From: a virus | Lineage: Duplodnaviria > Heunggongvirae > Uroviricota > Caudoviricetes | Virus record (IMG/VR): IMGVR_UViG_3300015615_000881 | Reading direction: 5' to 3' (one strand) | Length of the DNA: 64,000 bases | Shown: positions 36,433 to 64,000 of the stretch, in pieces | How the letters are laid out: every line of letters begins with the position of its first letter | Numbering within the stretch: the stretch's first letter is position 1 | Translations under genes and position numbers: made by a program | The notes under the pieces: model-generated | The model's database searches: none | Told to the model about the DNA's origin: nothing | The model's input: the letters and a program-made list of their open reading frames with translations, nothing else

Positions 36433-36481
36433 ATTACGGGAAGCCCGCCTGGTGAACCGGGCGGGCGGCGGGCGGGGCAGC

Positions 36482-47291: not shown

Positions 47292-47296
47292 AATGG

Positions 47297-47704: not shown

Positions 47705-47712
47705 GGTGTTTC

Positions 47713-47736
47713 GTTTCTGTTGACTCTGTTGACTCG
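47713..47736. promoter_or_regulatory. conserved element copy (GAGTCAACAGAGTCAACAGAAAC on the coding strand)
   Basis: It lies 9 nt upstream of the ATG at 47704, between the methyltransferase and secreted-protein genes. Confidence 0.45.
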
Positions 47737-47747
47737 CACACGGGGAT

Positions 47748-49145: not shown

Positions 49146-49339
49146 GCCATCACTGTCTCAACCTCGGAGACCTCGTCGAGCGAGACCGGACCTGGCTTGT
49201 TGCTGAGATAGACAACAATCTTCCCGTCCACGGCGGCAATGCTTCGGATGCGATAGAGCACTCCGTCATGCGGACCGCCAACGACGGGATGATAACGAAC
49301 ATACTGGCCGATTTCGATTTGGGTTTCATTCATACTCAT
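49142..49339 (-). CDS. hypothetical small protein
   Basis: ATGA-coupled to both neighbouring genes. Confidence 0.3.
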   Translation of the reverse strand: MSMNETQIEIGQYVRYHPVVGGPHDGVLYRIRSIAAVDGKIVVYLSNKPGPVSLDEVSEVETVMA

Positions 49340-49626
49340 TGTTCCACGTGTAACAGTTTGCTTGCTCGTTGCAAGTAAATTCTACCGAATAAACTGTTTC
49401 GACTGACTGCCAGCCACCGATTGAGGGCGGCGCGCCGTGCCGGGCAACCGCAATTCCCGAGGAACTTCTCCAGCCATTCCGGGCCGGCAGCGATGATGGC
49501 GCGCTTGATGGGGTCCGACTTGAGCGCGACCAGGTCGCCGAGGCCGAACACGTCCTCCTTCTGCACCTTGAACCCACCTGGCGGCGCTACCTCGTAGCCG
49601 AGAGCGGTCTTTCGAATGAGAGCCAT
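49336..49626 (-). CDS. hypothetical small protein
   Basis: ATGA-coupled. 96 aa. Confidence 0.3.
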   Translation of the reverse strand: MALIRKTALGYEVAPPGGFKVQKEDVFGLGDLVALKSDPIKRAIIAAGPEWLEKFLGNCGCPARRAALNRWLAVSRNSLFGRIYLQRASKLLHVEQ

Positions 49627-52600
49627 CAGTCAACGAGCTCCGCCTCGATGTATGTGGTTTGATCGACCAGCGGTGTGACCGTGACGCTGCGGGCGCTGGT
49701 GTTCGCGCAGCGGACACCTCCGGCGGATCGATTGTGGCCGATATAGAAGGTGCCGCCGGGAGGCTGGCCGGCGTCAAGGACTCCGGCCGGCGGCATAAGC
49801 TGACAGACCTCCGTGTTCGTTTGGTCGTCCTCAAACCGGTAGCCGTCGGCATCCTGGTCCCAAAAGTATGGAGTGGGGGTCTGGTTCGGAAAATTGCAGG
49901 GCGTAGCTTCCGCCTGGGTGGAGACCACAATCCCCCTGGGGACGGAGGTGAAGGTATGAACACGCGCAAGGAAACCGACGGCGCCGCCTTCCACAAGACC
50001 TTGGATCAAGGGCGGCAGGGCGTGAAGCGCGAGGGCATCGGTGGGCTGCATTCTCCAGTGAGTCACGGTCCTGAAGGAACTGAGCGCGAAAAGCCCCTCC
50101 CCACCAAAGCAGGGTTCGAGGGCGTTGAATCCGCCGAACGATGATGAGCCAAATCCGAGGCCGGCGGGTAACTCGTCCCACTCCTCGAGGTCGTTGCCGG
50201 GAAAGGCTTGACTGGCGGCGGGCAGCCCGGTGCTGGCCACCGCCTTCTTGTTCGCGTCGGTTTGGCAGATGGTGCCAGGTGGCCAGTTGGGTGCGATGCT
50301 GTCCGACCCGAAGTAGCTTTGACCCCGGGCTTGCAGCCGGAACGGGAGCATCATCCGCAGTCTCGTCAGTTTGTTGAAGACCTTGGCCATCCGGTTGAAC
50401 ACCTCGGCGCGCAGGACTGTGTTGGTCTGGGCGCTGAAGCCGAACATGGTGTCGGGGCGCTGGGCCGATGACATCGGGCCCTGGGACCGGCCACCGAACG
50501 CGTCAAAGAGCAGATTGTCCCAGGTGAAGTCGAACGAGGCGGTGATCGTGTCACCAAGCATCTGACCGCAGGTGGAGCAGCCGTAGGCCTGGGTGGTGGT
50601 GCCGTCGAGGAACGCTTCGCAGTACGCGCGCTGGTGCAATTCCATCTGCTGCATGATGTCCATCACAATCTTCGAGTCGCGGTCGGGATCGATGACGTCG
50701 TTGCCGTCCTCGTACTGCAATGGTGCCAACCGACAGAACAGGAAATCCGGATAGATTGATGCGTAGGGCGGGCCGAGCGTGGCGACCCGGATGTCACTTT
50801 CGGCGCCGTTGTCGCCGATCTTGGGCAGTGGTTTGTAGGAGGTCTCAGACTCGATGCCGCCGGTGTGAATGTGGTAGAGATATTGTCGGATGCCGTTCTC
50901 GAGGGACCGGTAGGGTTCGGCGGTGAGTTGATCCGGGGACCAGGTGTTCATGTCCGACGAAATGTCGCCGCCGATGCCGAAGTCGGCGGGACTGCAACAG
51001 TGGAAGCGACTCTTGAACGTGAGCTTGATGACCTCGTTGGCGCCCGGCGTGTCCACAATACAACTCTCGAGCTCGGGCCACGGTTCGTAGATCCGGCAGC
51101 TTTTGTAGAACCAGGTGCGCGTCTGGGCATCGGACGTTTGAAAGAACTGGTTGGACGTGCCTGCGTAGCGATAGCCGCTTGGGGCCTCCGGGGAAATGAG
51201 GCGGCTGATGCCGTAGTTGAAGTGGAAGCGCAGGTCAGGATTGTTGTAGCCGCGGATCTGGAGAGACCAGAAATGGCAGCGATCGCAGAGGGAGAAGTAG
51301 TCCGCCATGGCGGCGGGTTTCCACTGGCTGCTTTCGCTCCAATGCCAGGGCTTGAACTCCACGTTCATCAAGTGCTGGTTCGTGGTCCCCTGCTTGAGGG
51401 CGACGTGCCGGATGCCGTCGTAGATCCAGGGGCGGGCGTCGCCGGTGTGGGCAAACTCCTTGAGGCCGGCCAGGCCGGTGAATTTCTGACCGTTGGAGTA
51501 GTTGACCGGCGCTTCGGACGGACCGTAGGTGACGTGTCCGGACGTCGCGCGAACGATGTATGTCTCGCCTTCGGTGATCTCGCCAGTGAGGGTGGCGGCG
51601 ATGGGGGGCGCAATGTTGTGGAACGAATCCACTTCCATGTTGTTTTCACCGAGGGCGTACCGGGCGAACCAGAGACAGGACTTGCCATTCTCGACGGCGT
51701 ATTTGAGGACCTGCGCGCGAGGCACGAGGCGCATCAGGTCGCGACAGAGCCTGCGGGCGGCTTCATAGACAGGCTTGTCGTTGATGAACACACCCTCCAA
51801 TGGAAGACCTGGGGCACCGGAGCGGTTGAGGATGAGGCCGTGGTCGAAGTAGGCGTCGGACAGAATCTTCGGCGACAGGTAGCGGGTGCCGTCGCCATCG
51901 ACGGTGGCGATCGAGTCGCCGGTGGTGGTTGAGAGGCGCAGGACCAGATATTGGTCGTGGATGTCCGGCTTGTATTCGAGTTGCTCGGTGCATTCGATGT
52001 CGATGCGACCGGTGGCGTCCTCGAACACGGCGAGTGATTTGAGGCGGAACGAAAGGGGGCTCGGGTGAGGACCATCCGGGAAGGTGACGATCTGGCCCGG
52101 GACGTCGTCGGTAAGGACAATCTCCTTGAGCACCTTCCCATTGGTGCCGATCGCTTCAATGATGGCAGCGCCGATGAGTTTCGTGCATTTGAAGAACGCG
52201 GAGCCCAGGACAAATCCAGGTTCGTAGGCGTGAGTCGTTCCACCGCCAACGTGCGAGAACACCTGGCCGGCCTGGAAGACTTCGCCGGCGAGGAAGAACT
52301 GGGGCAGGTCGCGGACAACAAAGGATCCGTTCCAATGCCCGATGTTGGGGCTGAGCAGGTACTGGCTGGCGTTGAATCTTTCCACGTCGAATCCGAAGTC
52401 CTCGATGCTGTAGCCCGGGCTGGCGATCTCACCGACGGATCCGCGGTAGTCCTTGACGTACGCGGCCAGGCCCATGCGCGTGAGATGATCGCCGTCGGAT
52501 TTGGTGAGGGCCCCACCACACCGGTATGGCCCTTCGATGTAATCCTTGGTGCGAAGCGCGACCGGAATGTTGCTGCCCCAGACATAGACGAAGTACGCGG

Positions 52601-53393
52601 GGGGCGTACGCCCGATGAACCGGACGTGGCCGTTCACATTCGGACACGTCCCAGGAAAGCTGACCTCCTGCAGGCCGGGTCGAATCGGGGTGAAGAAGAT
52701 TCGGTGGTTGGGCGTTGGTGGTTGATCTTCAGTCGCGTCGCCACAGTCCCCGAGGTATTCCGGAAGCGGAAGGTAACCGCCGTAGGATTTGCCGTGGACG
52801 ATGGACCCACTGCCGCTGAGCGAGATCCGCACCACACCGTCATCACCGGCGACCGGGACCCACACGTCCGGGGTCAGTTGCTGAATCTTGTAGTAACTCT
52901 GGGCCGCGGCGAAGGCATTGGCGAGTTCGTGACCGGTGACGGGGTCGTACTGTCCGCGCTGAACCTTGCCGAGCTCCCAGATGGCTTCAATGGAGTCGTC
53001 GGGCTTGAGTGGCACGACCTCGAGGCGGACGTGCTCAGGGTCGGTGATCGGGTTTCCGAAGTGAAAGCCCATGAATGGACACGACAGGTTGGCGCCGGTG
53101 CCGAAACCGGGGTCAACGATGGGCCAGTCCGCACGGGCGATGTATGGGTCGAGATGGACGTAAAACTTGAACATCTCGAACATCGAGGGCCACAGGAGGG
53201 CAAGACCGCCACCGCTGGTGTCCGGATTACGGACCTGCCGAAAGCCGTTGAGGATGTAAAAGCAAACGCGCCAGGGCAGGTCGCCGATGGACCGGAGGCG
53301 ATCGTTGTCGGCGGTCGCCATGGCGTTGATCTGGGTGCTGGTGACCGGATCATCGATGGCGACTTCGGGAACGCGTTTGAAAACGAGGGCCAT
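49626..53393 (-). CDS. very large hypothetical protein (1255 aa), possible virion-associated
   Basis: A long uninterrupted ORF rich in Gly, Pro and aromatic residues. No catalytic motif was recognised. Confidence 0.45.
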   Translation of the reverse strand: MALVFKRVPEVAIDDPVTSTQINAMATADNDRLRSIGDLPWRVCFYILNGFRQVRNPDTSGGGLALLWPSMFEMFKFYVHLDPYIARADWPIVDPGFGTGANLSCPFMGFHFGNPITDPEHVRLEVVPLKPDDSIEAIWELGKVQRGQYDPVTGHELANAFAAAQSYYKIQQLTPDVWVPVAGDDGVVRISLSGSGSIVHGKSYGGYLPLPEYLGDCGDATEDQPPTPNHRIFFTPIRPGLQEVSFPGTCPNVNGHVRFIGRTPPAYFVYVWGSNIPVALRTKDYIEGPYRCGGALTKSDGDHLTRMGLAAYVKDYRGSVGEIASPGYSIEDFGFDVERFNASQYLLSPNIGHWNGSFVVRDLPQFFLAGEVFQAGQVFSHVGGGTTHAYEPGFVLGSAFFKCTKLIGAAIIEAIGTNGKVLKEIVLTDDVPGQIVTFPDGPHPSPLSFRLKSLAVFEDATGRIDIECTEQLEYKPDIHDQYLVLRLSTTTGDSIATVDGDGTRYLSPKILSDAYFDHGLILNRSGAPGLPLEGVFINDKPVYEAARRLCRDLMRLVPRAQVLKYAVENGKSCLWFARYALGENNMEVDSFHNIAPPIAATLTGEITEGETYIVRATSGHVTYGPSEAPVNYSNGQKFTGLAGLKEFAHTGDARPWIYDGIRHVALKQGTTNQHLMNVEFKPWHWSESSQWKPAAMADYFSLCDRCHFWSLQIRGYNNPDLRFHFNYGISRLISPEAPSGYRYAGTSNQFFQTSDAQTRTWFYKSCRIYEPWPELESCIVDTPGANEVIKLTFKSRFHCCSPADFGIGGDISSDMNTWSPDQLTAEPYRSLENGIRQYLYHIHTGGIESETSYKPLPKIGDNGAESDIRVATLGPPYASIYPDFLFCRLAPLQYEDGNDVIDPDRDSKIVMDIMQQMELHQRAYCEAFLDGTTTQAYGCSTCGQMLGDTITASFDFTWDNLLFDAFGGRSQGPMSSAQRPDTMFGFSAQTNTVLRAEVFNRMAKVFNKLTRLRMMLPFRLQARGQSYFGSDSIAPNWPPGTICQTDANKKAVASTGLPAASQAFPGNDLEEWDELPAGLGFGSSSFGGFNALEPCFGGEGLFALSSFRTVTHWRMQPTDALALHALPPLIQGLVEGGAVGFLARVHTFTSVPRGIVVSTQAEATPCNFPNQTPTPYFWDQDADGYRFEDDQTNTEVCQLMPPAGVLDAGQPPGGTFYIGHNRSAGGVRCANTSARSVTVTPLVDQTTYIEAELVD

Positions 53394-53671
53394 TAGCTAA
53401 TGACGGGTTTGAAGGGTTTCTGACGGGTTATCGTGGGCGGGGTTGATGCCTCCAACTCGGATTGAATTGCTGAAAACTCCTTGTGCATTTTGCTGTTCGG
53501 GGGCACCGGCTTCTGAAGCGCCACCAGCAGATCCTTGTTTATTTCGTCGAGTGGGTGTGACCCATCCCCCAACAGACACGATCTTCCGGCGTGCGAATAG
53601 CGCCACATTCCAGCTCTGGCGCCGACCGCGCATTGACGCCAATGCGCCATCCGGGGATCAGTGGATGTCAT
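53393..53671 (-). CDS. hypothetical small protein
   Basis: A weak ORF coupled between neighbouring genes. Confidence 0.15.
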   Translation of the reverse strand: MTSTDPRMAHWRQCAVGARAGMWRYSHAGRSCLLGDGSHPLDEINKDLLVALQKPVPPNSKMHKEFSAIQSELEASTPPTITRQKPFKPVIS

Positions 53672-53910
53672 GGCTTTAGTTGCCAGTCCGGCTTCCAGAA
53701 TGGCCCCTTCATGTTCCTGAATCCGCTGGACATGCCCGGCTTCAATTCAACGAGGGTGAATTGTTCTTTGCAGTGGGCGCATTGGGTTTTGTCCCCAAGC
53801 TTCGCGGTGGGCATACCCAACCCCACTGCGGCGGTGCAACAACGAAATGTGCCCGCAGGCTCCACAGCATAGTCAACGGTGTCGAGTTTCATGGCTTCCT
53901 CCCGTGCCAT
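53668..53910 (-). CDS. small Cys-rich (zinc-finger-like) protein
   Basis: CC...C-x2-C spacing (FRCCTAA...CAHCKE). Confidence 0.3.
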   Translation of the reverse strand: MAREEAMKLDTVDYAVEPAGTFRCCTAAVGLGMPTAKLGDKTQCAHCKEQFTLVELKPGMSSGFRNMKGPFWKPDWQLKP

Positions 53911-54299
53911 TGTCCGTTGTCGTCAACGTATATGTAGTCAACCCACCACCAGTTGCTACCCAGGACTGTGGCGGTCTCGGTGCCGTCGTCCCACACGATT
54001 TTCCCAGGCTTGCCGATTGGTGGGGCGTCGGAGACTTCCAGGCGGGCTGGAAAGTGAGTTTCAGTCCACAATCGTCGGTGGCAGAACACACAGACATGAT
54101 GGTTCTGCCAATCGGCTTCACCTGGTGGTTCTTTTACGGACACGACGCGGGAGAACTTCTTTGTCGCATTGATGCATCTCTCGGCTGGGCAATTGATCTT
54201 GAGACATTCGGGATCGGAGAAGTATCCGTCATACCGAATCGTGTGCCACGTTTGGCAGGGCAGCGCGCAGAGAAGGAGTAGTGAGAGTGGAATTGTCAT
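53889..54299 (-). CDS. secreted Cys-rich protein
   Basis: Signal peptide MTIPLSLLLLCALPCQTW and multiple Cys residues. Confidence 0.35.
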   Translation of the reverse strand: MTIPLSLLLLCALPCQTWHTIRYDGYFSDPECLKINCPAERCINATKKFSRVVSVKEPPGEADWQNHHVCVFCHRRLWTETHFPARLEVSDAPPIGKPGKIVWDDGTETATVLGSNWWWVDYIYVDDNGQWHGRKP

Positions 54300-54568
54300 A
54301 GTGGGAGACCGTCGTTTACGTGGCAGCGGCGTTCGATGAATTTGATGTACTCCGGGTTGAGTTCGATGAGGCAGGCATGGCGCGAGAGGCCGAGGGCGAC
54401 TTCACCGACGGTGCCGGATCCGGCGAAGGGATCGAGGCCGATCTGACCGGGGACACCGTAGTCACGGAGCCCGTAGTAAGGGGGTGACGTGACGCAGCAG
54501 TGGACGGAGTTATCCGGCAACTGGCGGAGGCGCTCGAGGCAATCGCCCTGGATGATTCTTACCGCCAT
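54296..54568 (-). pseudogene. internally deleted beta-class N6-adenine/N4-cytosine DNA methyltransferase remnant
   Basis: Motif IV (CCVTSPPYYG) and motif I (LDPFAGSGT) are only about 20 aa apart in a 90-aa ORF. Intact PF01555 enzymes have roughly 130-200 aa between them. Confidence 0.45.
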
Positions 54569-55308
54569 GAGAAATCCTTCGTCGGCACGCGCTGGATTTC
54601 AAAGCGGTAGCCGCGGGAGGTGTAGTTGAATGCCACGGAGTCGATGACGTTGGTGAACAGCCGGCCTTTGTATTCGGAGATGGAGAGGAGGTTGCTGGCG
54701 ACGAGGCCGTATTCACGGTTCGGCAATTCCAGTAACGAGACTACGCCGTGGCGTTTTGCGACGGCGATCCATTCATCGGTGGCGTGATCGGACCAGTTGG
54801 TGGCGAGCACCCAGACGGGTGGGTAGGAGGTGACGTCGCCGATGGAGACGCTGGTGCAGGCGGACCATGTGGAACTGGCGAAGGAGTGATTCATCTGGCC
54901 GCGCACGACATTCATCTGGCCTGGGGCTTGGATGCGGTTGGGCTCCTGGTCACCGGCAAAGAGGTTGGTGCTGGTGCCAAGATAGATCCCGCGACCGATA
55001 TTGGTCGTTAGGTTATGGTGATAGAGGATGCGGGAACGGTGCGGGCCGGGGTCGGTTGGCACCTGCATTGGATGGTTCGTTGATTCACGGGGGGCGATCG
55101 AGTTTGCGGCGCGCCGCAATTCTGCGAGCAGGGCTAGGCTTTTTTCGATCGTTCGGTCAGTGACGACCGGGTCGCCGGATTCGCTGGTGGCGAGCCAGTC
55201 GCGGCGGATTTCATTAACGGCGGAGCCGACTCGGATGGCGGAGTAGGAAATGGCGCCGAGGCAGAGTAGGCAGACGAGGGCTTTGATGGTGTCGATGGTT
55301 TTTTTCAT
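54559..55308 (-). CDS. membrane/secreted protein with shared C-terminal domain
   Basis: N-terminal hydrophobic segment (ALVCLLCLGAISY). The C-terminus REYGLVASNLLSISEYKGRLFTNVIDSV is paralogous to those of 55312-55896 and 39901-40320. Confidence 0.35.
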   Translation of the reverse strand: MKKTIDTIKALVCLLCLGAISYSAIRVGSAVNEIRRDWLATSESGDPVVTDRTIEKSLALLAELRRAANSIAPRESTNHPMQVPTDPGPHRSRILYHHNLTTNIGRGIYLGTSTNLFAGDQEPNRIQAPGQMNVVRGQMNHSFASSTWSACTSVSIGDVTSYPPVWVLATNWSDHATDEWIAVAKRHGVVSLLELPNREYGLVASNLLSISEYKGRLFTNVIDSVAFNYTSRGYRFEIQRVPTKDFSWR

Positions 55309-55311
55309 AAG

Positions 55312-55896
55312 TTACTCATACCGGCGGACTACCTCCTCGCGGAATGTTCTAGTCAGATTGGTCACGATAACCGATTCAAGGACGTTGGTGTGCTTGACGC
55401 CTTTCCACTCGATGACGGCGACGAGGTTGGATTGGACGGTGCCGCGCTCCAGGGGCGGCGGCGTTGAAACAACGTTGCCGTTGATCATGACTTTGGTGGG
55501 AACCTGATCCACCCAATTCGTATGCAACTGCCATTGTGGCGTGGTGCACAGTAGGTCCGAGCCGTTGAATGATACGCTTACTATTGTTCTCGGCGGCGGC
55601 GCATTCGTCATCACCGGCGACGATTGGACTGTCCACGTGTCGGTTTCGATGAGTGCCGACGGCTTCACGCCCAGAAAGTCCGCGGCCTCCTCTCGTGTCA
55701 TGTGGGAAAGTGGCGTGTAGTGGTGAAACTTGACATACCCGTCATCCATGAAACGAAGCCACACGGACCCTTGGTTGGTGCCGGATCGCCACAAGACTTG
55801 ACCGGCGGCAATTTGTTCTGCCTTGTGGTCAGAGTAGCACCCGGACAACAGAAGCGTGGAGGTGAGGATTAGGGCGAAGGTGATGATGTTTTTCAT
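55312..55896 (-). CDS. lipoprotein with shared C-terminal SNLVAVIEWKGV...TNVLESVIVTNLTR domain
   Basis: Lipobox MKNIITFALILTSTLLLSGC. The C-terminal paralogous domain is present. Confidence 0.4.
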   Translation of the reverse strand: MKNIITFALILTSTLLLSGCYSDHKAEQIAAGQVLWRSGTNQGSVWLRFMDDGYVKFHHYTPLSHMTREEAADFLGVKPSALIETDTWTVQSSPVMTNAPPPRTIVSVSFNGSDLLCTTPQWQLHTNWVDQVPTKVMINGNVVSTPPPLERGTVQSNLVAVIEWKGVKHTNVLESVIVTNLTRTFREEVVRRYE

Positions 55897-55900
55897 ACGA

Positions 55901-56251
55901 TTAACGGTTCAGGATGAGTTCGCAGTAGATGACGAGGCCGCGGCGGAGGAATACCTTTTGGAAGTGTTCTTCGAAATCGAGCAAAGGATCGAGGCGGCTG
56001 GGTTCGGGCTGCCAGGCGCGTTGGAGTTCCCACAGGTATTCGGATAGGGAAGTTGTGCCGTGCGCCTTCCAGAAGGCCATGGCTTTGGTGAGGTCGGTGT
56101 TGAGATCGCTCCAATCGATCCAGTTGTTGAGAGCATCCCGGAGGGCGGGACCACGCCAGCGCTGACGGCAACGGACTTTGTATTCGTCGTGCGTTGGCAC
56201 CTTCAGACCCGCTGAGGCGGGCACGTCCAGCAATTGGATCTGTTCGGTCAT
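55901..56251 (-). CDS. hypothetical protein
   Basis: The probable start is MTEQIQLLD. The ATG lies 5 nt after the 3' CCA of the tRNA-like element. Confidence 0.3.
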   Translation of the reverse strand: MTEQIQLLDVPASAGLKVPTHDEYKVRCRQRWRGPALRDALNNWIDWSDLNTDLTKAMAFWKAHGTTSLSEYLWELQRAWQPEPSRLDPLLDFEEHFQKVFLRRGLVIYCELILNR

Positions 56252-56255
56252 GTTG

Positions 56256-56367
56256 TGGTGGAGGAGCCCGGATTCGAACCGTGCGGTGGCGGGTCGCACA
56301 TCTTACCCATAGCCAGCCGCTCTTAGTGTGCTCTATAGATCTCGTTCCCAACGAGCAAAGCTCCCCC
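56256..56367 (-). ncRNA. 112-nt tRNA-like element (perfect T-arm GG-TTCGAAT-CC, acceptor GGGGGAG/CTCCTCC, encoded ACCA 3' end)
   Basis: The element exactly fills an intergenic gap. The D-arm-like CTCG-TTGGGAA-CGAG is present. No clean anticodon arm could be drawn, as roughly 30 extra nucleotides include a CTCTATAGAG palindrome. Confidence 0.3.
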
Positions 56368-56368
56368 A

Positions 56369-58972
56369 TTACGCCCAGCGGGCGACAACCTTTCCTCCGC
56401 CTGTGCCGGACCCGAGGCCGGCCATGATGAGGCGGACGTTTTCGTCGGCGATCTTCTGCAGCGCGAGACCGACTTCGATCGCGCCGGATTCGCCTTTGGA
56501 TTTTGAGGTCAGGTAATCCTGACCGTTGACCTTGACGAGAGAGTCGTTGACCTCGCAGGGGCCTTTGACGCGGACGAGGCAGCGGCCTTGGGGTTGAACG
56601 TGCAAAATGGAATTGGCGGGTTCGTTATTGCGGGTGACGACGCCGGCGAGAACGGTGTGATCGGCGGCGGCGGACGTGGGCATGACGGAGCGGGTGCCGG
56701 TGTTGACGTCGTCGCCGGCGGTGACGGGTTGGCGCCAGAGAGGGGTGCCGACGGCGAGATGGGAATCGTCGGGTGGACTGTCGATGACGGTGGGGACAGT
56801 GGGATCGGAGTGGCCGAGGAAACCGCGAAAGGCGTCGGACAGGTTCTTGTACGTGCGACGGCTTTGGCGGAGACCGGCGGCGACCATTTTCAGGGCGCGG
56901 GCTTGTTCGATGAGTTCCTGCTGGCCTGGGTAGAGGGATTGTTCGGCGCGGCGGCGGTCGTAGTCGCGTTCGGGTTCGTAGAAATTCTTGCTGCGTTCGT
57001 TTGCGAAATCAACTTCCTCCCAGTGTCCGTCGGCGCCGTAGTGGAGGGTCAGGCGGTTGTAAAAGCCGTTGAGTTGAATGGCCGTGTCGCCGGCGAGGAG
57101 GTAGCGGACGAACCCGCCGTCGGCGATGAGCAACTGGCGGGTGAGATAGGCTGTGCCGATGTCGATGGCTTTGGATACGGCGGTGGTACCGTCGGCGAAG
57201 GGGATCTCGATGGAGGCGCCGGAGACGGGGTCAAGGAGGTATTCGGAGTGGAGTTGGGGTTCGTTGACGGTGTAGTCGAGGGATCCGTTGGGGGTGGCGA
57301 CGGTGCGATAGATGAAGGGTTCGGCCTCGAAAGTGAGGCAGGCGATGACGGGTGGAATGGTTATGTCGATGCCGTCGATGACGCGGAACACGGCGTGGCC
57401 GTCGATGCGCTCGACGAGGCTTTCCGCGCGGATGACAGGTCCGTCGAAGAGAACGTATTTGTAGCCCTGGCCACTGTCGTCGATGTGGAACTGGGCGGCG
57501 GACCAGGTGGTGAGTGCGTCGGACCAGTTGGCGAGGTTGAAGCGGTCGGGGGAGAGGCCGCGGAAGATGTCCTGGGCGACCTGGTAACCGCGGATGATGG
57601 CCAGGCCGTTACCGTCGATCGGGGCGTTTAGGTCGGCGGTCATCACGCCCGTCGCGGGATTGAACTCGACTCTGGCGATCTGCTGTTCGACCAGATTGTA
57701 GGACCGGAGTGGGATCTGACGGACGACTCTTCCCCGCCCAGGGGATGGTTCGATGACGGCGAGATTGTCGGGAGGTTTGAAGCATCGGAAAAGGATGGTG
57801 TTGATGTACTGGACGCACGGCATGTCGAGGCGGGTGCGGCCGGCGAACTTGCGATAGTCGCGGAAAACCTCACCGGAGGGAGGACTGAGGGTGTCCTCGT
57901 GGGCGGCGAACTGACGGAGGGTCATCAGGGTGGACCGGGCGCGGGCTTTATGGCGGCCGATGATCTGTTCGGGATCGTCGGGTTGGCTGGTGTAGGGCAC
58001 GCCTTGTTCGTCGTTGAAGTTTCTGAAGACGTAGTCGTGGAAGAGTTCTTCGTCGTAGAAGAACTGCCATGCCGTGTTCCAGGCGGGCTCGAGACCGACG
58101 TTGATGATCTGGTAAACGTTGCGGCCGCCGAGAACGAAGACGCGCGTGGGCGCGGAGTTCATGGCGGTGCCGTCGCGGAGGATGTCGGTGTTGGGGGGAA
58201 AGACGAAGCGGCCGTCGGCAGAGAAGGAGCCTGGGGAAATGGATTCGTTCTGGCGCAGGACCCCCATGCGGGTCCAGTAGAGGGTCAGGCGTTGGGAGAG
58301 GGTGAATGTGAGACCCTGGCGGGCGCTGACTTCGACGAGGAAGGCGTCGAGGCGGCGGCCGTTGGTGGCATCGATGTTGAGAAGGGTCCGCTCGATCTGG
58401 TCGGGGTGATAGACGCGGGCCCATGGGGTGCCGATGGTTACGCCGGAGAATACGTAATCGAGGACCTGGGAGACGGACAGTGGGGTGTCGGTGTAGGTGC
58501 GGAGGCCTGAATCAAAATTGTTGGGTAGAATGTGCCAGTAACGCTTGCGGCGTTCAGGGAGACCGGTGACGGGCGAGTTCTCGATGGTGGTGTACACCAT
58601 GTTGAAGGCGCAGAAGGTCCAGTCGTCCTGGAGGTATTTGCGTTGGTCGAAGAAGCGGAGGATGCGGGTCTGGCCGCCGGATCCGGCGGCGGAGACGTCG
58701 GACATGCAAACGCCGTGGAAGACGCGGCCGGCGAAGGAGATCTCGGTGTAGGAGCCGACGGCGACGCCGCGTTCGCGGATGGCGGTTTGGACGACCACGT
58801 CGGGATTGGTGACGGATTCAGCGACGTAGTCGATGGTGGCCTCGCCGGGTTGGGCGCCCCAGGACATGGTGAAGTCGAGCTTGCTGATCTGGAACTGGGC
58901 GGCGGCTTGCTGGCCGGGACCGCGGAGTGGATCACGGACGGAAATGACCGGGGGTGGAACAGGATCAGGCAT
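56369..58972 (-). CDS. very large hypothetical protein (867 aa)
   Basis: A long ORF with no recognisable motif. It could be structural. Confidence 0.45.
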   Translation of the reverse strand: MPDPVPPPVISVRDPLRGPGQQAAAQFQISKLDFTMSWGAQPGEATIDYVAESVTNPDVVVQTAIRERGVAVGSYTEISFAGRVFHGVCMSDVSAAGSGGQTRILRFFDQRKYLQDDWTFCAFNMVYTTIENSPVTGLPERRKRYWHILPNNFDSGLRTYTDTPLSVSQVLDYVFSGVTIGTPWARVYHPDQIERTLLNIDATNGRRLDAFLVEVSARQGLTFTLSQRLTLYWTRMGVLRQNESISPGSFSADGRFVFPPNTDILRDGTAMNSAPTRVFVLGGRNVYQIINVGLEPAWNTAWQFFYDEELFHDYVFRNFNDEQGVPYTSQPDDPEQIIGRHKARARSTLMTLRQFAAHEDTLSPPSGEVFRDYRKFAGRTRLDMPCVQYINTILFRCFKPPDNLAVIEPSPGRGRVVRQIPLRSYNLVEQQIARVEFNPATGVMTADLNAPIDGNGLAIIRGYQVAQDIFRGLSPDRFNLANWSDALTTWSAAQFHIDDSGQGYKYVLFDGPVIRAESLVERIDGHAVFRVIDGIDITIPPVIACLTFEAEPFIYRTVATPNGSLDYTVNEPQLHSEYLLDPVSGASIEIPFADGTTAVSKAIDIGTAYLTRQLLIADGGFVRYLLAGDTAIQLNGFYNRLTLHYGADGHWEEVDFANERSKNFYEPERDYDRRRAEQSLYPGQQELIEQARALKMVAAGLRQSRRTYKNLSDAFRGFLGHSDPTVPTVIDSPPDDSHLAVGTPLWRQPVTAGDDVNTGTRSVMPTSAAADHTVLAGVVTRNNEPANSILHVQPQGRCLVRVKGPCEVNDSLVKVNGQDYLTSKSKGESGAIEVGLALQKIADENVRLIMAGLGSGTGGGKVVARWA

Positions 58973-59196
58973 CAGTGTCTCCCGAACATATCGGTGAAAA
59001 TGTCGGCGCCGCGTTGGCCGCCGAGTTTCCGGAGGTCCTCGGCGAATTTGTGACCGGCAGTGTGGCCGGCGGAGTGGCCAGCATCGTAGGCACGCTCGAT
59101 TTGTTGTACCAAGCTGGCGGGTGCGAGGGTGATCCGGATGGCTTCAAACAACCGTGGGTTGTTGGCTTTGATGCTGGCGATGTAATCGTCCCGGGT
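58972..59196 (-). CDS. hypothetical small protein (GTG start overlapping upstream TGA)
   Basis: A GTGA junction at 59196. The ORF-track N-terminus is low-complexity and was ignored. Confidence 0.2.
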   Translation of the reverse strand, partial: TRDDYIASIKANNPRLFEAIRITLAPASLVQQIERAYDAGHSAGHTAGHKFAEDLRKLGGQRGADIFTDMFGRH

Positions 59197-59402
59197 CACA
59201 GGAGGTGTTCGTTGATGACCTTGTGCTCGCGGATCTCGATGGCTGGGCGGGCGCGAAAATCGAAAACCTTGCCGGTGGGGGTGAGGAGGCAGAGGCGATG
59301 GGTGCGGCGATCTTCGCCCCAGCGCCAGTTCTTGTGGTTGGTGAGAAACGCGAGGTGTTCGAGTCTCACACTGGCCCACGTGAATTTTTTCCCTCTGGCC
59401 AT
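59196..59402 (-). CDS. hypothetical small basic protein
   Basis: A 68-aa ORF at the start of an operon, about 260 nt downstream of the primase gene. Confidence 0.3.
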   Translation of the reverse strand: MARGKKFTWASVRLEHLAFLTNHKNWRWGEDRRTHRLCLLTPTGKVFDFRARPAIEIREHKVINEHLL

Positions 59403-59632
59403 TGTTTATGTCGATTCTATTGTCTTGGATGCTCCATCTGGTTACTGGCCGTTGGCTTCAGTGTGCTTTAGCATGCCGACGCATAGAGGACACCTGGCAG
59501 TAACGCCTCGAAGGCCTCCTAAATGTCTCTCGCCGTAAGTTGTAACTTGCGACCCAGACATCGCCGCGTTGAATCGACTCATTCATCAACGGGCACCACC
59601 TGACAACGACGCTTTTTTGAATTTCCATACGC

Positions 59633-59663
59633 TGTTGACCGATTCGACAGATTCTATTGATTT
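59633..59663. promoter_or_regulatory. degenerate copy of conserved element (ATAGAATCTGTCGAATCGGTCAACAG)
   Basis: It lies immediately downstream of the primase-helicase stop and at the head of the next operon. Confidence 0.35.
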
Positions 59664-62600
59664 ACGTTGTGCCTGGCAAGTTTTCTTCGCCGTCTTTTGG
59701 TTCGACGGCGTGGACGATCTCGAAGAGTTCGCCCTTGCGGGGATCGACCCATTCACCGGTGGGCCAGGAGACGCCGGGAGACTTTTCCCATGAGTCGCGC
59801 ATGACGTCGTCGGTGACGGGTTGGTAGCCGAGTTCGTGGAAGTCGAGGTCAACGGCCCAGCAGTTGGAGCCGGCGGGGGCGTCGCCGAACCGTTGCTTGT
59901 GCACGCAGCCGTTGGGAGGGTTGACCCAGGACCGGCGCTGGCTCATCTGCGACTTCAGGTCGGAGTGGTTGAGGGACATGGTTTTACCCTGTTGGCGGTA
60001 GTGGCGTTGGAGAAGGTCGAGAACGACGCCGTGAACGAAGTAGAGGCGGTAGCTGACCCATCTTATGCCGCGGAAACAGTGGACACATTCTTCGTGTGCA
60101 TCGTGGGGATCGACGCCGGGGGGATGGATTGATTCACCGAGGCGGCGGGCTTTGAACATTTTGGACAGGTCGGCGCGGCCGTGGCCGAAGACGCCGGCGC
60201 GGAGGGCGTTGACGATGTCGGTCCAGATGCGATTGACGTCCACGTTTTCGGCGACGGTGGCGCTGCCGGCGGCGCATTCGACCAGGGTAAACCTGTGAAA
60301 CTGTTTGATGTCGGTGGGGGAGTGGGAGTTTAGGAGTGAGACCATGGAGGCCATGGCGGAGTAGCCGACGCCGTAAACGTAGCGGGCGCGTTGCTCGATG
60401 GACTCGATGGCGGGATCTGCCATCCACTTCTCGAGGTTCTCGAGTACGCCTTGAACGAACTTGGGGCGGTTGCGGAGGAGGTGGCGGCCGAGGAGGTAGA
60501 ACTGGTCGCAGTTGGCCTGGAACCAGTCGAAGTGATTGACGCGGCGTTTCTGGTCGGAGACCTGGATGTGGGGGAATCGGGAGCGGACCTGGGCGTCGGA
60601 GGAGGTGGCGATGCCGGTGACCACGACGCTGCCGAGGATGCGGCGCATGCCCTCGCCGAACGTTTTCTTGATGCCGGCTTCGCGGTTGTAGGAGTTCTTG
60701 ATGGTCTCGATGATCTCCGGGGGGCTGTCGGTTTGGAACTCCTCTAACCACACCGGCAGGTTGGAATACTGCTGGAGGACGATGCAGATGCCGACGCGGG
60801 AGGAGCCTTTGAGGACGATGCCGACGTCCTTGGTGAAGCCCCAGATGTGTTGGAGCCATTTGGCGGTGGATGATTTGCCTTTGCCTTTTTCGCCGTGGAG
60901 CCAGAGGCCTGGGAAGGCGGTGAACTTCTGGTAGAGCTCGGGAGCGGCGGCGTAGGCGAGCATCATGCCGAGAGTGAGGTAACCTTCGTAGCCGCCGAGG
61001 GCGTCGTTGAGGCGGGTGGAGACGTTCTGGAAGAGATCGACGATGGCCTCGTTTTCGGATTCGAACTTGCCGCCCACAGCATCGAGCCAGACGTCTTTGG
61101 CGTTGATGTCGGGACGCATGAGGGGGCGGCCCAGTTTGAACTCTTCACCTTCGTGGTCGCGATCGGCCATCTTGTACCCCTTGCCTTCGTGCCAGAGGAT
61201 GCCGGTTTGTTTGTCGGGGGTGAGTTCGACGTTGTCGCCGAGGATGAGGTCGTCGAAGAACCAGAGTTTGGAGCGGGAATGCCAGCCGAAGTAGGGGACC
61301 TCGAGTACGGATTTGTGCGCGAGGGCGTTGGCCATGTCCTTCTGGAGGTTTTGCATCTCGCGTTCGCCGGCGCCCCAGGTGGCGTTGGCGTGGAGGTTGA
61401 GCCAGACGCGCATCTGTTTGGGGGCGCTCCAGGATTCGGCGTCGAGATCGAGGACCTCGGTTTTTTCGCCGTGGATGTTGAAGATGCGAACAAGACGGCG
61501 CAGTTCCCCGCTCTCCTTTTGGAGGATGTGCAGGGGAATCATGTAGAAGTCGGTGAACTGTTCGGGGACACCTTCGAGGGCGATGGAGCAGGCCCATTCG
61601 TAGTCGAGGTCGTGCTGGTGATGGGCGATCTCCCGGCGGAAACGCCAGTTTTGTTCGTAGTTGGCGTCGTCGGGGACCTTGTCTTTGCGTGGCAGGGGTT
61701 TGAGTTGGTAATACCCTTCGGTTAGTTCGCGATACTGGCGGGAGAGCCATGAGAGATAGGTGAGGGCGGCGTCGGGGATCCGGCCTTGTTTACGGCGGCA
61801 CTCCCACACGAAATCGGTGAGCTTGCGGACGAGCCACTTCTCGCGGTCGCCGGCGCGGGGCAGTTTGGGTTCGTAGCTGATGGCCCGGAGTTTTCGGTGG
61901 ATGGTCTTTTCCTCATCTTCAGAGAACAACCCAAGCTGACGGAAGGACGAGACGGTATGGGACTTCTTTAAAACCTCGACGAAGACTTTTTGAATCGGCG
62001 GCTTTCTCGACAGCCAGTCAGGTTCGGCGGCGGGTTGGTCGGAGTGGAGGAGGTGCGACAGGTGGCCATCCCAGTCGGCCTTGCCGTTCTCGTCGCGCCA
62101 GTCGTTGGGGAGCACGCAGACGCGGGCGTCGTAACCGTCACGGGCGAGTTGCTCGGCGAGGTAGCGGGCCCAGACCTGGGTATCGTAGCGTTTCCAGGGA
62201 TCCTTTTTGAACCCGGGCAGATTTGGGTTGCCTTTGTCCTCGTTGTCGAAGGCGACGCAGACGCGGCGGGCGCCGGAGGATCTGAGCCACTTCTCGAGGG
62301 CGGCGCGGACCCACCAGGATCCGCCGCTGGACTTGCTCATGCTGATGCCTGGCAGGGCGGCGACGCCGAAGGCTGCCGTGCCGTCCTCCTTGCGTAAATC
62401 TCCCAACACCTGGCTCACGGCAAGTGCCTTGAACTCACCCTCGCAGATGATGGCGGTGTCGAACTTGCGTTGATTCTGGCGGTCGGGAAAGGGGACGTAG
62501 AGATGGGGCGATCGCCCTTTGAGCATCTCCTTGTGTGGGCGCAGTTGGAGGAGGCGGCCGCGATCGTCGAAGTAGGGAATGAGGATTGGTTGGGTCCAGT

Positions 62601-63918
62601 CGAACTCCCACTCATTATCCTTGTCGCCTTCAGTCCGGGGCTTCTTACACTTGCGGCCCCAACCGTGGTAGAACGGGTTGGGCTTTGGTTCAGAGCGTTC
62701 GTGTTGGACCCACAAGCCACAGGCGATGAGGGTCTCGAGTTTGAACTCCTTCTCGAGAGAGAGAAGGATTTCCTTGTTGGAATGGTTGTTGGATTTGAGA
62801 GGCTGCCGGGTGTCGGCGATGAGGCCGCGTTTGATCCATGTTTTTTGGGCGTCGTCGTCGGTGAGAGAGATCCGGTTGTAGAACACGGCGAGCGCATCGG
62901 AGACTGATCGATCATCTTCACCGTCGTCCGGGCCATCAGGCGGAGGACCGCCAGGCGGTTCGGACGGTGGCCCAGTGGGCGGTTGGAATACTGAAATAGA
63001 AGGCGCTCCGGCAGAATGGGGCACTGCTGATGCAGCGTCCTGCGGAGCGCTCGGAGTCCCTTCGGGTTTACCTGCACCGGGGGATTGTTCCGTGAACAAC
63101 TGGGGACCATCCGGAAGAGCGGGAGAACTTTCGGATGCAGCGGGGCTGCCAGTTGAAAGCGAAGAAATCAGTACGGCACGAGGTTGCCTTGGAGAAAGGA
63201 AAGGCCCCACGACCCCTAGCCGTTCCAGTTCTTCAATTATTTTCGCGGCTACAGAGTTCCCGATGCGCAAATTGGCCTTGATTTCGCGCGCGGAACACGA
63301 CTGGGTCCGGATCACCAGGTCGCGGGCGGCGGCCACCCGGGCGGCCATGATCAACTCGGGCGTGAGCTCCGCGACTGCGACTGTTGCAGCGGGGGGCGGA
63401 TTCGTTGCATCCGGAGGCGGAATCGTTTCACCAGCCGCTGCAGTTGTCTCACTCTCAGGTTCGGGGACTTGTGGCTCTGAAGGTTCGGACGGTGGTTCGG
63501 GGAGGGCGGATGGAGGTGGAATGACGGCGGCGGCTTCTGGATCAACAGGCCCGGAGACCCGGCGGGGGCGCTGGCCGGGCATGATGCTGGGTGAGTGGGT
63601 CGGTTCCTTCCATACACCAGCTTCCTTGAGGTAGGTCTTGAAGGCCTCCGCGCGGCCAATGGACAGCTTGTAGCCGAGGTATCCGACCTCGTCGAACGAC
63701 GCCTTTGGCCCGCTGGTGCCGCTGGGGCACGACGTGTGGAAACACTTGAACCACTGGCGGGATCCACGCTCGGAAACGCTGGCACCGGACTTCCGGCAGA
63801 AAGGGCATGGAAACCCTTTCCACTTGCCATTCTGAGGGCCGTCTCCGTACTGTTCCATCAACAGCTTGAGCGGCAGAGCAGCCCTGGCGTCCTCGATCCT
63901 TGCGTTATCAGCACTCAC
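59662..63918 (-). CDS. bifunctional DNA primase / SF3 (D5-like) helicase, P4-alpha-like, with FtsK-gamma-like winged helix
   Basis: CHC2 zinc finger FPCPFC...FKCFHTSC. A Pro-rich linker. wHTH LRIGNSVAAKIIEELERLGVVGP. TOPRIM motifs IICEGEFKALA and VAFDNEDKG. Walker A GEKGKGKSS and Walker B WLEEFQTD. Length 1418 aa. Confidence 0.75.
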   Translation of the reverse strand: MSADNARIEDARAALPLKLLMEQYGDGPQNGKWKGFPCPFCRKSGASVSERGSRQWFKCFHTSCPSGTSGPKASFDEVGYLGYKLSIGRAEAFKTYLKEAGVWKEPTHSPSIMPGQRPRRVSGPVDPEAAAVIPPPSALPEPPSEPSEPQVPEPESETTAAAGETIPPPDATNPPPAATVAVAELTPELIMAARVAAARDLVIRTQSCSAREIKANLRIGNSVAAKIIEELERLGVVGPFLSPRQPRAVLISSLSTGSPAASESSPALPDGPQLFTEQSPGAGKPEGTPSAPQDAASAVPHSAGAPSISVFQPPTGPPSEPPGGPPPDGPDDGEDDRSVSDALAVFYNRISLTDDDAQKTWIKRGLIADTRQPLKSNNHSNKEILLSLEKEFKLETLIACGLWVQHERSEPKPNPFYHGWGRKCKKPRTEGDKDNEWEFDWTQPILIPYFDDRGRLLQLRPHKEMLKGRSPHLYVPFPDRQNQRKFDTAIICEGEFKALAVSQVLGDLRKEDGTAAFGVAALPGISMSKSSGGSWWVRAALEKWLRSSGARRVCVAFDNEDKGNPNLPGFKKDPWKRYDTQVWARYLAEQLARDGYDARVCVLPNDWRDENGKADWDGHLSHLLHSDQPAAEPDWLSRKPPIQKVFVEVLKKSHTVSSFRQLGLFSEDEEKTIHRKLRAISYEPKLPRAGDREKWLVRKLTDFVWECRRKQGRIPDAALTYLSWLSRQYRELTEGYYQLKPLPRKDKVPDDANYEQNWRFRREIAHHQHDLDYEWACSIALEGVPEQFTDFYMIPLHILQKESGELRRLVRIFNIHGEKTEVLDLDAESWSAPKQMRVWLNLHANATWGAGEREMQNLQKDMANALAHKSVLEVPYFGWHSRSKLWFFDDLILGDNVELTPDKQTGILWHEGKGYKMADRDHEGEEFKLGRPLMRPDINAKDVWLDAVGGKFESENEAIVDLFQNVSTRLNDALGGYEGYLTLGMMLAYAAAPELYQKFTAFPGLWLHGEKGKGKSSTAKWLQHIWGFTKDVGIVLKGSSRVGICIVLQQYSNLPVWLEEFQTDSPPEIIETIKNSYNREAGIKKTFGEGMRRILGSVVVTGIATSSDAQVRSRFPHIQVSDQKRRVNHFDWFQANCDQFYLLGRHLLRNRPKFVQGVLENLEKWMADPAIESIEQRARYVYGVGYSAMASMVSLLNSHSPTDIKQFHRFTLVECAAGSATVAENVDVNRIWTDIVNALRAGVFGHGRADLSKMFKARRLGESIHPPGVDPHDAHEECVHCFRGIRWVSYRLYFVHGVVLDLLQRHYRQQGKTMSLNHSDLKSQMSQRRSWVNPPNGCVHKQRFGDAPAGSNCWAVDLDFHELGYQPVTDDVMRDSWEKSPGVSWPTGEWVDPRKGELFEIVHAVEPKDGEENLPGTT

Positions 63919-64000
63919 GCAAGGTCACACACGAGGCACAATCAGGAGTTATTAGCTTGATAATAAACATCTTAGACAGGTAAGTTCGAATTTACACTTC

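Follow-up and report, generated by a model that had tools for sequence, protein, structure and literature searches.

What fills the only large gap in a tightly packed phage operon? This question is raised by the IMG/VR virus record IMGVR_UViG_3300015615_000881 (Caudoviricetes), of which a stretch of 64,000 nucleotides (nt), here called the window, was analysed. The gap is 117 nt long and holds a tRNA-like element, which we read from the sequence as 112 nt on the minus strand, at window positions 56256..56367. RNA nt i of the element is window position 56368 - i, and the RNA sequence is GGGGGAGCUUUGCUCGUUGGGAACGAGAUCUAUAGAGCACACUAAGAGCGGCUGGCUAUGGGUAAGAUGUGCGACCCGCCACCGCACGGUUCGAAUCCGGGCUCCUCCACCA. 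We conclude that the element is a real, non-canonical tRNA-like RNA gene of irregular form. An earlier note on this DNA had proposed a non-canonical, tRNA-derived element, and this proposal is borne out by the T-loop, the GG in the D-loop, the paired acceptor helix, the terminal ACCA and an end-to-end match to a covariance model.

The element sits between two genes. The upstream gene, which encodes a protein of 867 amino acids (aa), ends with a TAA stop codon at 56369-56371, and a single U separates this codon from G1 of the element. On the other side, four nt (CAAC) lie between the CCA of the element and the ATG of a gene for a 116-aa protein. The earlier note had described the element as exactly filling its gap, without stating a strand, and had placed its 3' end 5 nt from the next start codon. 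A non-coding gap does hold the element, which is on the minus strand with spacers of 1 nt and 4 nt, and the distance to the start codon is corrected to 4 nt.

The non-coding nature of the element is seen in the periodicity of GC content at third codon positions (GC3), which tracks the frame of the 116-aa protein (MTEQIQLL...) and collapses inside the element. Three stop codons inside the element interrupt the frame shared by the flanking genes. A mechanical open reading frame (ORF) of 158 aa (55893..56369, minus strand) runs across the element, and we rejected it for its Arg/Pro-rich translation, its wrong GC3 phase and the homolog-supported start of the downstream gene at 56251. The ATG at 56251 is supported by an alignment of 18 homologs, one of which (P0016) shares the N-terminal extension. 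The rejected ORF mimics a coupled gene, with a TAATG overlap with the upstream stop and an ATGA overlap with the next gene. In a naive annotation, this spurious ORF would mask both the element and the real 116-aa gene.

The tRNA-like features were compared with chance expectation. Only at this place in the window do four features coincide: the exact consensus of the T-loop, GGUUCGAAUCC, a terminal helix closing the molecule, ACCA, and the UGG of the D-loop at the correct spacing. We built a structure-aware search pattern on these constrained positions, which gave 1 match in the window and 0 in 100 shuffles (expected 0.00). The chance that a random 9-mer fully pairs with the 3' strand of the element is P = 1.2e-4. 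The minimum free energy (MFE) of the whole element is -45.3 kcal/mol (z = -2.5), and 0/200 shuffles were equally stable.

To divide the element into parts, we used its folding and its alignment to two covariance models. One is the tRNA-Sec family of Rfam (RF01852), and the other, named R1, is a covariance model of nine natural 9/3 allo-tRNA scaffolds from the supplement of PMC7590224. The parts, from the 5' end to the 3' end, are:

56359..56367, minus strand: 5' strand of the acceptor stem, GGGGGAGCU (nt 1-9), with G3 in a G3.U wobble; it pairs with nt 108-100 with probabilities of 1.0 (pairs 1-8) and 0.89 (pair 9).

56357..56358, minus strand: UU linker (nt 10-11), which falls in the alignment where the nine 9/3 allo-tRNAs have their 2-nt linker.

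56340..56356, minus strand: hairpin at the D-arm position, GCUCGU-UGGGA-ACGAGA (nt 12-28), aligned as a 6-bp D-stem in R1 and in Rfam tRNA-Sec.

56321..56339, minus strand: 19-nt segment at the anticodon-arm position (nt 29-47), with the palindrome TCTATAGA, skipped as a local insertion by both covariance models.

56283..56320, minus strand: bulged 12-bp hairpin of 38 nt (nt 48-85) at the variable-arm position, abutting the T-stem with a 1-nt spacer; pair probabilities 0.93-1.0.

56269..56281, minus strand: T-arm with a 3-bp stem CGG/CCG and the loop UUCGAAU (nt 87-99), read from the sequence and pair probabilities of 0.92-0.97; A86 (56282) is the 1-nt spacer before it.

56256..56268, minus strand: 3' strand of the acceptor stem, GGCUCCUCC (nt 100-108), discriminator A109 and encoded CCA (nt 110-112), read from the sequence and the R1 alignment.

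The acceptor branch of 12 base pairs (bp) is complete, with 9/9 standard pairs in the acceptor stem and 3/3 in the T-stem, G3.U and U9.G counted. Both the MFE structure and the ensemble pair nt 1-9 with nt 100-108, including G3.U106, C8-G101 and U9.G100, and both confine the T-stem to 3 bp (C87-G89 with C97-G99). The earlier note had drawn a 7-bp acceptor stem, GGGGGAG/CTCCTCC, with one wobble. Its pairing and the G3.U wobble stand, and its length does not, as the helix extends to 9 bp (GGGGGAGCU/GGCUCCUCC). The T-stem that it called perfect, CACGG/CCGGG, contains an A.G mismatch, and only the 3 bp of CGG/CCG are sound. The discriminator A and the encoded CCA are both there, as it had said. 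When the fold is constrained to a 7-bp acceptor and a 5-bp T-stem (7/5), it becomes 6 kcal/mol worse than 9/3 and keeps the A.G mismatch. The predicted architecture is a 9-bp acceptor stem with a 3-bp T-stem, favoured over 7/5 in the modelling of a single sequence with no covariation. In the 9/3 reading, the aberrant 5-nt linker becomes a UU linker, as in published 9/3 allo-tRNAs, and every nt of the element is assigned to acceptor, UU, D hairpin, 19-nt segment, 38-nt hairpin, spacer, T-arm, 3' strand, A or CCA. The canonical positions T54, Psi55, C56, R57, A58 and C61 are legible in the T-loop. The alanine identity set, which consists of G3:U70, A73, G1-C72, G2-C71 and G4-C69, is legible too.

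The interior of the molecule is irregular. The hairpin at the D-arm position, noted earlier as CTCG-TTGGGAA-CGAG and present as such, has six stem positions, with 5 pairs and one G.A mismatch, and its 5-nt loop UGGGA carries the GG. It competes with an alternative hairpin of the MFE structure at nt 11-39. The 19-nt segment that follows can form 3 sound pairs only, or a stem of 6 bp that is bulged and capped by the 6-nt loop AGCACA. A palindrome does exist there, TCTATAGA within ATCTATAGAG, and the string CTCTATAGAG reported for it earlier does not occur. In an exhaustive hairpin scan, no canonical anticodon stem-loop was found at any position of the element, in agreement with the earlier failure to fold one, and no 7-nt loop with U33 and R37 stands on a sound stem except the D-position hairpin. 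Because there is no anticodon stem-loop and both covariance models skip that arm, the element would be unable to decode.

The element is missed by ARAGORN and Rfam at their thresholds, which exposes a blind spot. In default, intron, transfer-messenger RNA (tmRNA) and organellar modes at default stringency, ARAGORN made no call at the element and reported a single tRNA in the window, tRNA-Met at 13309-13383. At thresholds of 50-80%, it forced a tRNA-Ser(GCU) with a 13-nt intron, and equally good junk appeared on the opposite strand. Its tmRNA mode found no match at the element even at lowered thresholds. An intron-containing tRNA had been among the earlier suggestions and is not upheld, as the intron search is empty at default stringency and no 13-nt excision gives a U33/R37 loop.

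In searches of Rfam at gathering thresholds and at E <= 10, no family reaches its threshold at the element, and tRNA-Met is the only gathering-level match in the window. RF00005 has no listed match at the element even at E <= 10 and is out-scored by tRNA-Sec within the clan. When 120 nt were searched alone, tRNA-Sec was the best match of the element in the Rfam tRNA clan; this match is full length, with the 9-bp acceptor and the 6-bp D-stem aligned, and it is sub-threshold (17.6 bits, E = 0.21). The tmRNA_permuted family matches only a 32-nt fragment made of T-arm and acceptor (12.5 bits).

The nine scaffolds in R1 each fold by plain MFE into the published cloverleaf, and their alignment has compensatory changes at 19/23 pairs. 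The best R1 match in the window is exactly 56256-56367 on the minus strand, and it is full length, with 31 bits and E ~2e-4 over the window (3e-6 locally). The acceptor, linker, D-arm and T-arm of the element are aligned, and the anticodon arm is skipped as a 33-35-nt local insertion. The genuine tRNA-Met of the window scores 23 bits on R1 and 51 bits on Rfam. Because ordinary tRNAs score 20-48 bits on R1, the R1 score is proof of tRNA-likeness, not of 9/3 membership, and after this control we rejected R1 as a specific classifier of allo-tRNAs. A matched 7/5 class II control model was dropped, the available tRNA-Tyr sequences being too alike to probe architecture. The earlier note had held that its idea would be refuted by the lack of any covariance-model match together with a lack of transcription, and half of this outcome is seen: no curated family reaches its threshold. 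A second, weak R1 match at 36470..36549 on the plus strand (11.5 bits, E = 2.3) has a GC-rich 9-bp terminal helix ending in GCCA. We judged it a chance match; it has no T-loop, and it is located on the strand that does not code, where it overlaps a terminator-like hairpin past the end of a gene.

Relatives of the element were sought in IMG/VR, in 185,579 species-representative genomes and in a metagenome collection that does not contain the source samples. The exact 3' half of 22-25 nt gave 0 matches in all three, and two interior strings gave 0 matches in IMG/VR. BLAST searches of the element against phage genomes returned generic T-arms only. A structure-aware pattern that specified G1-G4, the UU linker, the D-loop UGG, the T-loop and CUCC-A-CCA yielded 1, 119 and 96 loci in the three collections, all of which were explained otherwise: as tRNA-Tyr preceded by GG, as tRNA-Ala or tRNA-Tyr with a fortuitous upstream match, or as the last 86-114 nt of full-length tmRNAs. 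The locus L120, considered as a similar element, was rejected as one of these tmRNAs. The genuine tmRNAs retrieved are 349-363 nt long and score 155-204 bits on RF00023. A route through the flanking proteins found no IMG/VR loci. It gave 13 homologs for the 867-aa protein and 32 for the 116-aa one, and the element is absent from the eight contigs that were inspected. With a single sequence and no homolog found in these collections, neither covariation nor selection can be read from the data.

The searches also brought up an ARAGORN gap inside a phage cluster of 25 tRNA genes (IMG/VR UViG_3300023284_001008, contig L227, ~4131..4229, plus strand). The gap contains an uncalled tRNA-Ser-like sequence of ~99 nt, GGAGGAA...CUUGAAAAC...GGGUUCGAAUCCUAC-UUCCUCC-G-CCA. 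Its D region is odd, and it may belong to the irregular forms of tRNA-Ser known from phages.

All genes of the window are on the minus strand. PHROGs matches in the window include a tape-measure protein, DNA methyltransferases, an exonuclease, a deoxynucleoside monophosphate kinase and a primase-like protein of 1418 aa, and most other genes are orphans. Longer contigs of the same genome (L005/L006, 1..5054, past window position 64000) run into the host genes purA-uppS-cdsA-dxr-rseP. Because the gene block abuts host housekeeping genes, we take the window to be an integrated, divergent tailed prophage or island. About 115 nt lie between purA and the gene of the primase-like protein, and there is no integrase or tRNA at that end. 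The host lineage is unsampled, as its housekeeping proteins remain singletons when clustered at 90%. The 1418-aa protein (59662..63918, minus strand) combines primase-like regions, which have PHROG DNA primase matches, with a DNA-binding FtsK gamma domain near residues 197-251, an unusual fusion for a phage replication protein.

The element is located ~7.6 kb inside the prophage, in its early/replication region, and no integrase was found near it. The spacing between neighbouring genes is -10 to +17 nt, mostly without Shine-Dalgarno motifs, and the gap that holds the element is the exception. Neither a sigma-70-like promoter nor an intrinsic terminator was found within 55600-57000, and co-transcription of the element with its neighbours is therefore expected. 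Across 46369..64000, the genes share one strand and have many stop/start overlaps of 1 nt or 4 nt, and ~10/17 starts lack a Shine-Dalgarno-like motif. This suggests a host poor in such motifs or heavy translational coupling in that region. The same prophage carries a conventional tRNA-Met(CAT) with encoded CCA at 13309..13383 (minus strand). This tRNA has an unusual terminal pair, U1.G72, and an apparent C discriminator, and could be an initiator, an elongator or an Ile2-type tRNA.

The genes around the element are:

56369..58972, minus strand: upstream orphan gene of 867 aa, supported by the ORF list, GC3 phase and homologs P0001-P0013.

55901..56251, minus strand: downstream gene of 116 aa (MTEQIQLL...), with its ATG 4 nt after the CCA and no Shine-Dalgarno motif, supported by translation, GC3 phase and family alignment.

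55312..55896, minus strand: lipoprotein of 194 aa, with the signal sequence ...LLLSGC (MKNIITFALILTSTLLLSGC).

54559..55308, minus strand: protein of 249 aa, with an N-terminal hydrophobic membrane anchor seen in its signal sequence.

54296..54568, minus strand: internally deleted remnant (90 aa) of an N6/N4 DNA methyltransferase, matching both ends of the methyltransferase of the relative L001.

The comparison with L001, the closest relative (47% identity for the 867-aa protein), shows how the gene content differs. In L001, downstream of the homolog of the 867-aa gene, there is first a gap of 266 nt devoid of tRNA features and next an intact N6/N4 methyltransferase of 447 aa. Only two stretches of this enzyme are matched by the remnant in the window, namely aa 5-45 (66% identity) and, with 61%, aa 386-431. 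Between the 867-aa gene and the remnant, the window has the element, the 116-aa gene and the two exported proteins, a block that is absent from L001. The element heads this lineage-specific extra block and is tied to neither flanking gene family. A 1255-aa gene was tried as a conserved downstream neighbour and rejected, having no detectable homology.

The 116-aa protein belongs to a family of ~30 small phage proteins (P0015-P0045) with an invariant C-terminal motif, LDFEEHFQKVFLRRGLxIYC, and nothing in Pfam, PHROG or PADLOC matches the family. Its members are met repeatedly in early or anti-defence-like regions, beside methylase, HNH, NUDIX, SNF2 and 'Sequestin' genes. In other phage contigs, its genes are always packed against a different upstream gene, without a tRNA-like element. 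The two proteins of 194 aa and 249 aa, which both look exported, are paralogous over their C-terminal ~80 aa (37% identity, E = 9e-11), and may be envelope proteins of the prophage, of the 'moron' or superinfection-exclusion type. Searches of the neighbouring orphans with PADLOC, NCBIfam, Pfam and PHROGs found no toxin-antitoxin or defence genes.

What could a tRNA-like RNA that does not decode be doing at this place? Our preferred reading, which we hold tentatively and at a little below even confidence, is that the element would be a co-transcribed, ribonuclease P (RNase P)-processed, probably alanine-accepting, non-decoding RNA. The features needed to form a tRNA elbow are present, namely the T-loop invariants and the D-loop GG, together with a 12-bp coaxial acceptor/T stack, U at position -1, A73-CCA and the alanine identity set. 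Bacterial RNase P and alanyl-tRNA synthetase (AlaRS) rely on determinants of this kind. Acceptor/T minihelices suffice for AlaRS, and an acceptor/T-arm stack with the alanine elements is sufficient for alanylation in model systems.

According to this reading, the element would be transcribed within the operon RNA, and RNase P would cut between U(-1) and G1, at a distance of 1 nt from the stop codon of the upstream gene. Endonucleolytic cleavage and trimming by exonucleases would mature the end with the encoded CCA. Once released, the RNA of ~112 nt would form the tRNA elbow and serve as a substrate of AlaRS, and would decode no codon. Its excision would sever the polycistronic mRNA and leave the next cistron nearly leaderless, with <=4 nt in front of it. 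This cistron opens the block to which the two exported proteins belong, and the element would thus act as a tRNA-type punctuation or processing module. In unprocessed RNA, the stable acceptor helix, located 4 nt from an AUG without a Shine-Dalgarno motif, would be expected to occlude initiation. In this model, a further role of the (alanyl-)RNA is possible, for example as a decoy or sponge. An antisense regulator was also considered and rejected, the complementarity to transcripts of the window being at chance level.

A more elaborate version, which we regard as unlikely in its full form, is that the prophage would have adapted a scaffold of the 9/3 allo-tRNA type into a dedicated non-decoding RNA with an enlarged, aptamer-like arm, excised by RNase P and alanylated by host AlaRS. 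This RNA would serve either as punctuation that gives a leaderless mRNA for the superinfection-exclusion-like proteins that are exported, or to divert, as a decoy or sponge, those host factors that target tRNA. If true, this would be the first natural function for the irregular allo-tRNA-like class.

Several observations weigh against our preferred reading. The 38-nt hairpin alone is not significantly more stable than shuffles (p = 0.085), and the allo-like D-arm plus middle arm has an ensemble probability of ~7%, compared with ~90% for the hairpin at nt 11-39. The tRNA-Sec score is far under the gathering score (17.6 vs 47), and the 20-48 bits scored on R1 by ordinary tRNAs come from 7/5 molecules of unrelated loci. 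Neither flanking gene family carries such an element elsewhere, no homolog of the element was found in any collection searched, and three independent assemblies, 100% identical over 17.6 kb, give a single element sequence. The surrounding block has signs of decay, as seen in the internally deleted methyltransferase, and this favours a pseudogene. The main rival explanation is a decayed pseudogene of a phage-borne tRNA or allo-tRNA, which would have lost its anticodon arm by insertion, deletion or point mutation and would now be an inert spacer at a recombination-prone module junction. We rate this as a serious possibility, well short of even. It agrees with the missing anticodon loop, with sub-threshold scores on every curated model, with a singleton that has no conserved relatives, and with a decayed or rearranged neighbourhood in which the block is absent from L001; allo-tRNA pseudogenes and inactive variants have been described by Mukai et al. 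(PMC5389517). However, the damage would be oddly selective, as it has spared all 12 acceptor-branch pairs, the T-loop invariants, the GG of the D-loop, A73 and CCA. The middle segment also does not resemble a canonical arm with a single lesion, and no excision restores a U33/R37 loop, although a very recent event could still explain this. We counted this selective integrity, with only the anticodon region aberrant, together with the normal tRNA-Met in the same prophage, in favour of the non-decoding RNA. Should the element prove to be no more than a decayed tRNA gene, it would be of use chiefly as an annotation caveat.

The other explanations are much less probable. A functional decoding tRNA with an unconventional anticodon arm would use either an enlarged or bulged loop or the UUGGGAA loop of the first hairpin. 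That hairpin (nt 12-28) has a formally perfect 7-nt anticodon-loop format (U33-GGG-A37), odd-structured allo-tRNAs function in E. coli (PMC5389517), and the prophage carries another tRNA gene. We nevertheless consider decoding improbable, because the hairpin occupies the place of the D-arm, only 2 nt away from the acceptor stem, in a geometry incompatible with decoding. The loop of the arm at the anticodon position has 6 nt or 13 nt and lacks U33, and ARAGORN is empty in standard, intron and organellar modes at default stringency. An attachment-site remnant had been raised in the earlier note; such a remnant, or recombination scar, would be what is left of a host tRNA or tmRNA 3' end picked up by site-specific integration. 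The window is an integrated prophage beside purA-uppS-cdsA-dxr-rseP, the element marks a junction at which the closest relative has other gene content, and its T-arm and acceptor 3' end are weakly similar to a tmRNA terminus (tmRNA_permuted, 12.5 bits). Such remnants hold only the 3' part of a tRNA, identical to the end of a host tRNA or tmRNA gene and placed at an element boundary, often as a direct repeat. Here, however, the complementary 5' strand and the D-arm are present, so that both acceptor halves are accounted for. In addition, the 22-nt 3' half occurs in no species-representative genome, metagenome record or IMG/VR contig, no host tRNA with a matching 3' end was found in these viral, genome and metagenome collections, and the window contains no partial or direct repeat of the 3' half. 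The element also lies ~7.6 kb inside the prophage, not at its end, with no integrase nearby. This explanation is largely refuted, and we give it very little probability.

A miniature tmRNA-like molecule, whose alanylated tRNA-like domain would act with SmpB on stalled ribosomes, would account for G3:U70, A73 and CCA, which form the tmRNA acceptor identity, for the absence of an anticodon as in tmRNA, and for the partial tmRNA_permuted match on T-arm and acceptor. We find it scarcely credible, as ARAGORN in tmRNA mode is empty even at lowered thresholds, the element has no tag reading frame, pseudoknots, conserved tmRNA 5' motif or GGAC element, and true tmRNAs are far longer and score high on RF00023 (349-363 nt, 155-204 bits). 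A chance resemblance, or an mRNA structure without tRNA ancestry such as a spacer hairpin that modulates translational coupling, has an equally slim probability. The total fold stability is only moderately unusual (z = -2.5) and the large hairpin alone is not significant, which speaks for this explanation, but shuffled or unrelated sequence gave no comparable pseudo-matches. It does not account for an exact 11-nt T-loop consensus directly beside a closing 9-bp helix and then ACCA, with the D-loop GG at the right distance, for a pattern expected 0.00 times in 100 shuffles, or for a full-length covariance match at the exact ends of the gap. With an intact alanine-type acceptor branch, no anticodon and a place flush between phage genes, the element is in our view well suited, as a natural case, to asking whether RNAs of this kind act as processing signals, are charged without decoding, or are relics.

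Among known systems, tRNA-type processing modules resemble the element in their placement. They include the mitochondrial punctuation model, the mascRNA of MALAT1 and the stable 'species 1/2' RNAs of phage T4. In punctuation systems, a tRNA-shaped module lies flush between segments, RNase P and 3' processing set the transcript ends, and the downstream mRNAs are leaderless or nearly so. The element is likewise flush between coding segments. Bacterial and phage examples of punctuation are ordinary tRNAs or lie in tRNA clusters, and are not placed 1 nt and 4 nt from ORFs. With the tRNA fragments at prophage attachment sites, the element shares the prophage context and a tRNA 3' end with CCA. Unlike these fragments, it has both acceptor strands and a D-arm, no identical host counterpart was found in the collections searched, and it is internal to the prophage.

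The acceptor end of tRNA-Ala and tmRNA is like that of the element in G1-C72, G2-C71, G3.U70, G4-C69, A73 and CCA. Unlike tRNA-Ala, the element has no anticodon arm with UGC or GGC and is not 7/5, and unlike tmRNA (RF00023 / RF04321), which is ~350 nt long or has a two-piece permuted form, it has no tag ORF and no pseudoknots and is of the wrong length. With tRNA-Sec, it aligns over the long acceptor and the 6-bp D-stem, whereas UCA occurs nowhere in the element, position 73 is A and not G, and the T-stem has 3 bp instead of 4-5 bp.

Members of the (9/3) allo-tRNA class possess a 9+3 acceptor branch, a long D-stem like that of tRNA-Sec and a long variable arm, and were first found as tRNA-Sec look-alikes (Mukai et al., 2017, PMC5389517). 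A subset with G3:U70 inserts alanine, and odd-structured members function in E. coli (PMC5389517). In this class, the D-stem of 5-6 bp carries a tetraloop and follows a linker of 1-2 nt, and the charging identity lies in the variable arm plus G73 or U73 for serine, or in G3:U70 for the alanine subset, to which the element corresponds. A73 together with G3:U70 makes allo-tRNA scaffolds alanine acceptors, and bulges in the variable arm block seryl-tRNA synthetase in E. coli (Mukai et al., 2020, PMC7590224). Like them, the element has a predicted 9+3 branch, a UU linker and a canonical T-loop. It may also form a D-stem of ~6 positions with a short loop with GG, and its putative extra arm abuts a 3-bp T-stem with a spacer of 0-1 nt. 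It is also a weak tRNA-Sec look-alike that standard tRNA finders overlook. The (9/3) allo-tRNAs are found in soil and marine metagenomes, and related 8/4 forms in phages. Unlike them, the element has no 6-bp anticodon stem and no 7-nt anticodon loop, measures 112 nt compared with 88-93 nt, and has a bulged extra arm of 38 nt compared with ~15-23 nt. Its D-loop has 5 nt and not 4, its D-stem has a G.A mismatch, and it is wedged between ORFs with spacers of 1 nt and 4 nt and no homologs found. The predicted acceptor branch and the alanine identity of the class are thus present and the anticodon arm is absent, and we call the element allo-tRNA-like without assigning it to the (9/3) allo-tRNAs.

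Irregular, translationally inactive relatives of allo-tRNAs and pseudogenes are also known, and have been proposed to be regulatory RNAs or relics (PMC5389517). Fewer than 12 (9/3) allo-tRNAs were known at first description, and the irregular, non-translating relatives have no assigned function. The inactive allo-tRNA(UAU) variants, the pseudogenes and the 'irregular tRNA' polycistrons of Acidobacteria combine, as the element does, an allo acceptor branch with disrupted stems or extra junction elements in a mobile or accessory context, and their decoding activity is absent or doubtful (PMC5389517). Unlike the element, these forms keep a recognisable anticodon loop and were reported beside toxin-antitoxin or transposon genes (PMC5389517), whereas the element has orphan phage genes and exported paralogs as neighbours. 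The nearest known relatives in kind are the (9/3) allo-tRNAs and their irregular inactive relatives, and what is new here is an alanine-type, anticodon-less molecule with an oversized arm, inside a prophage operon.

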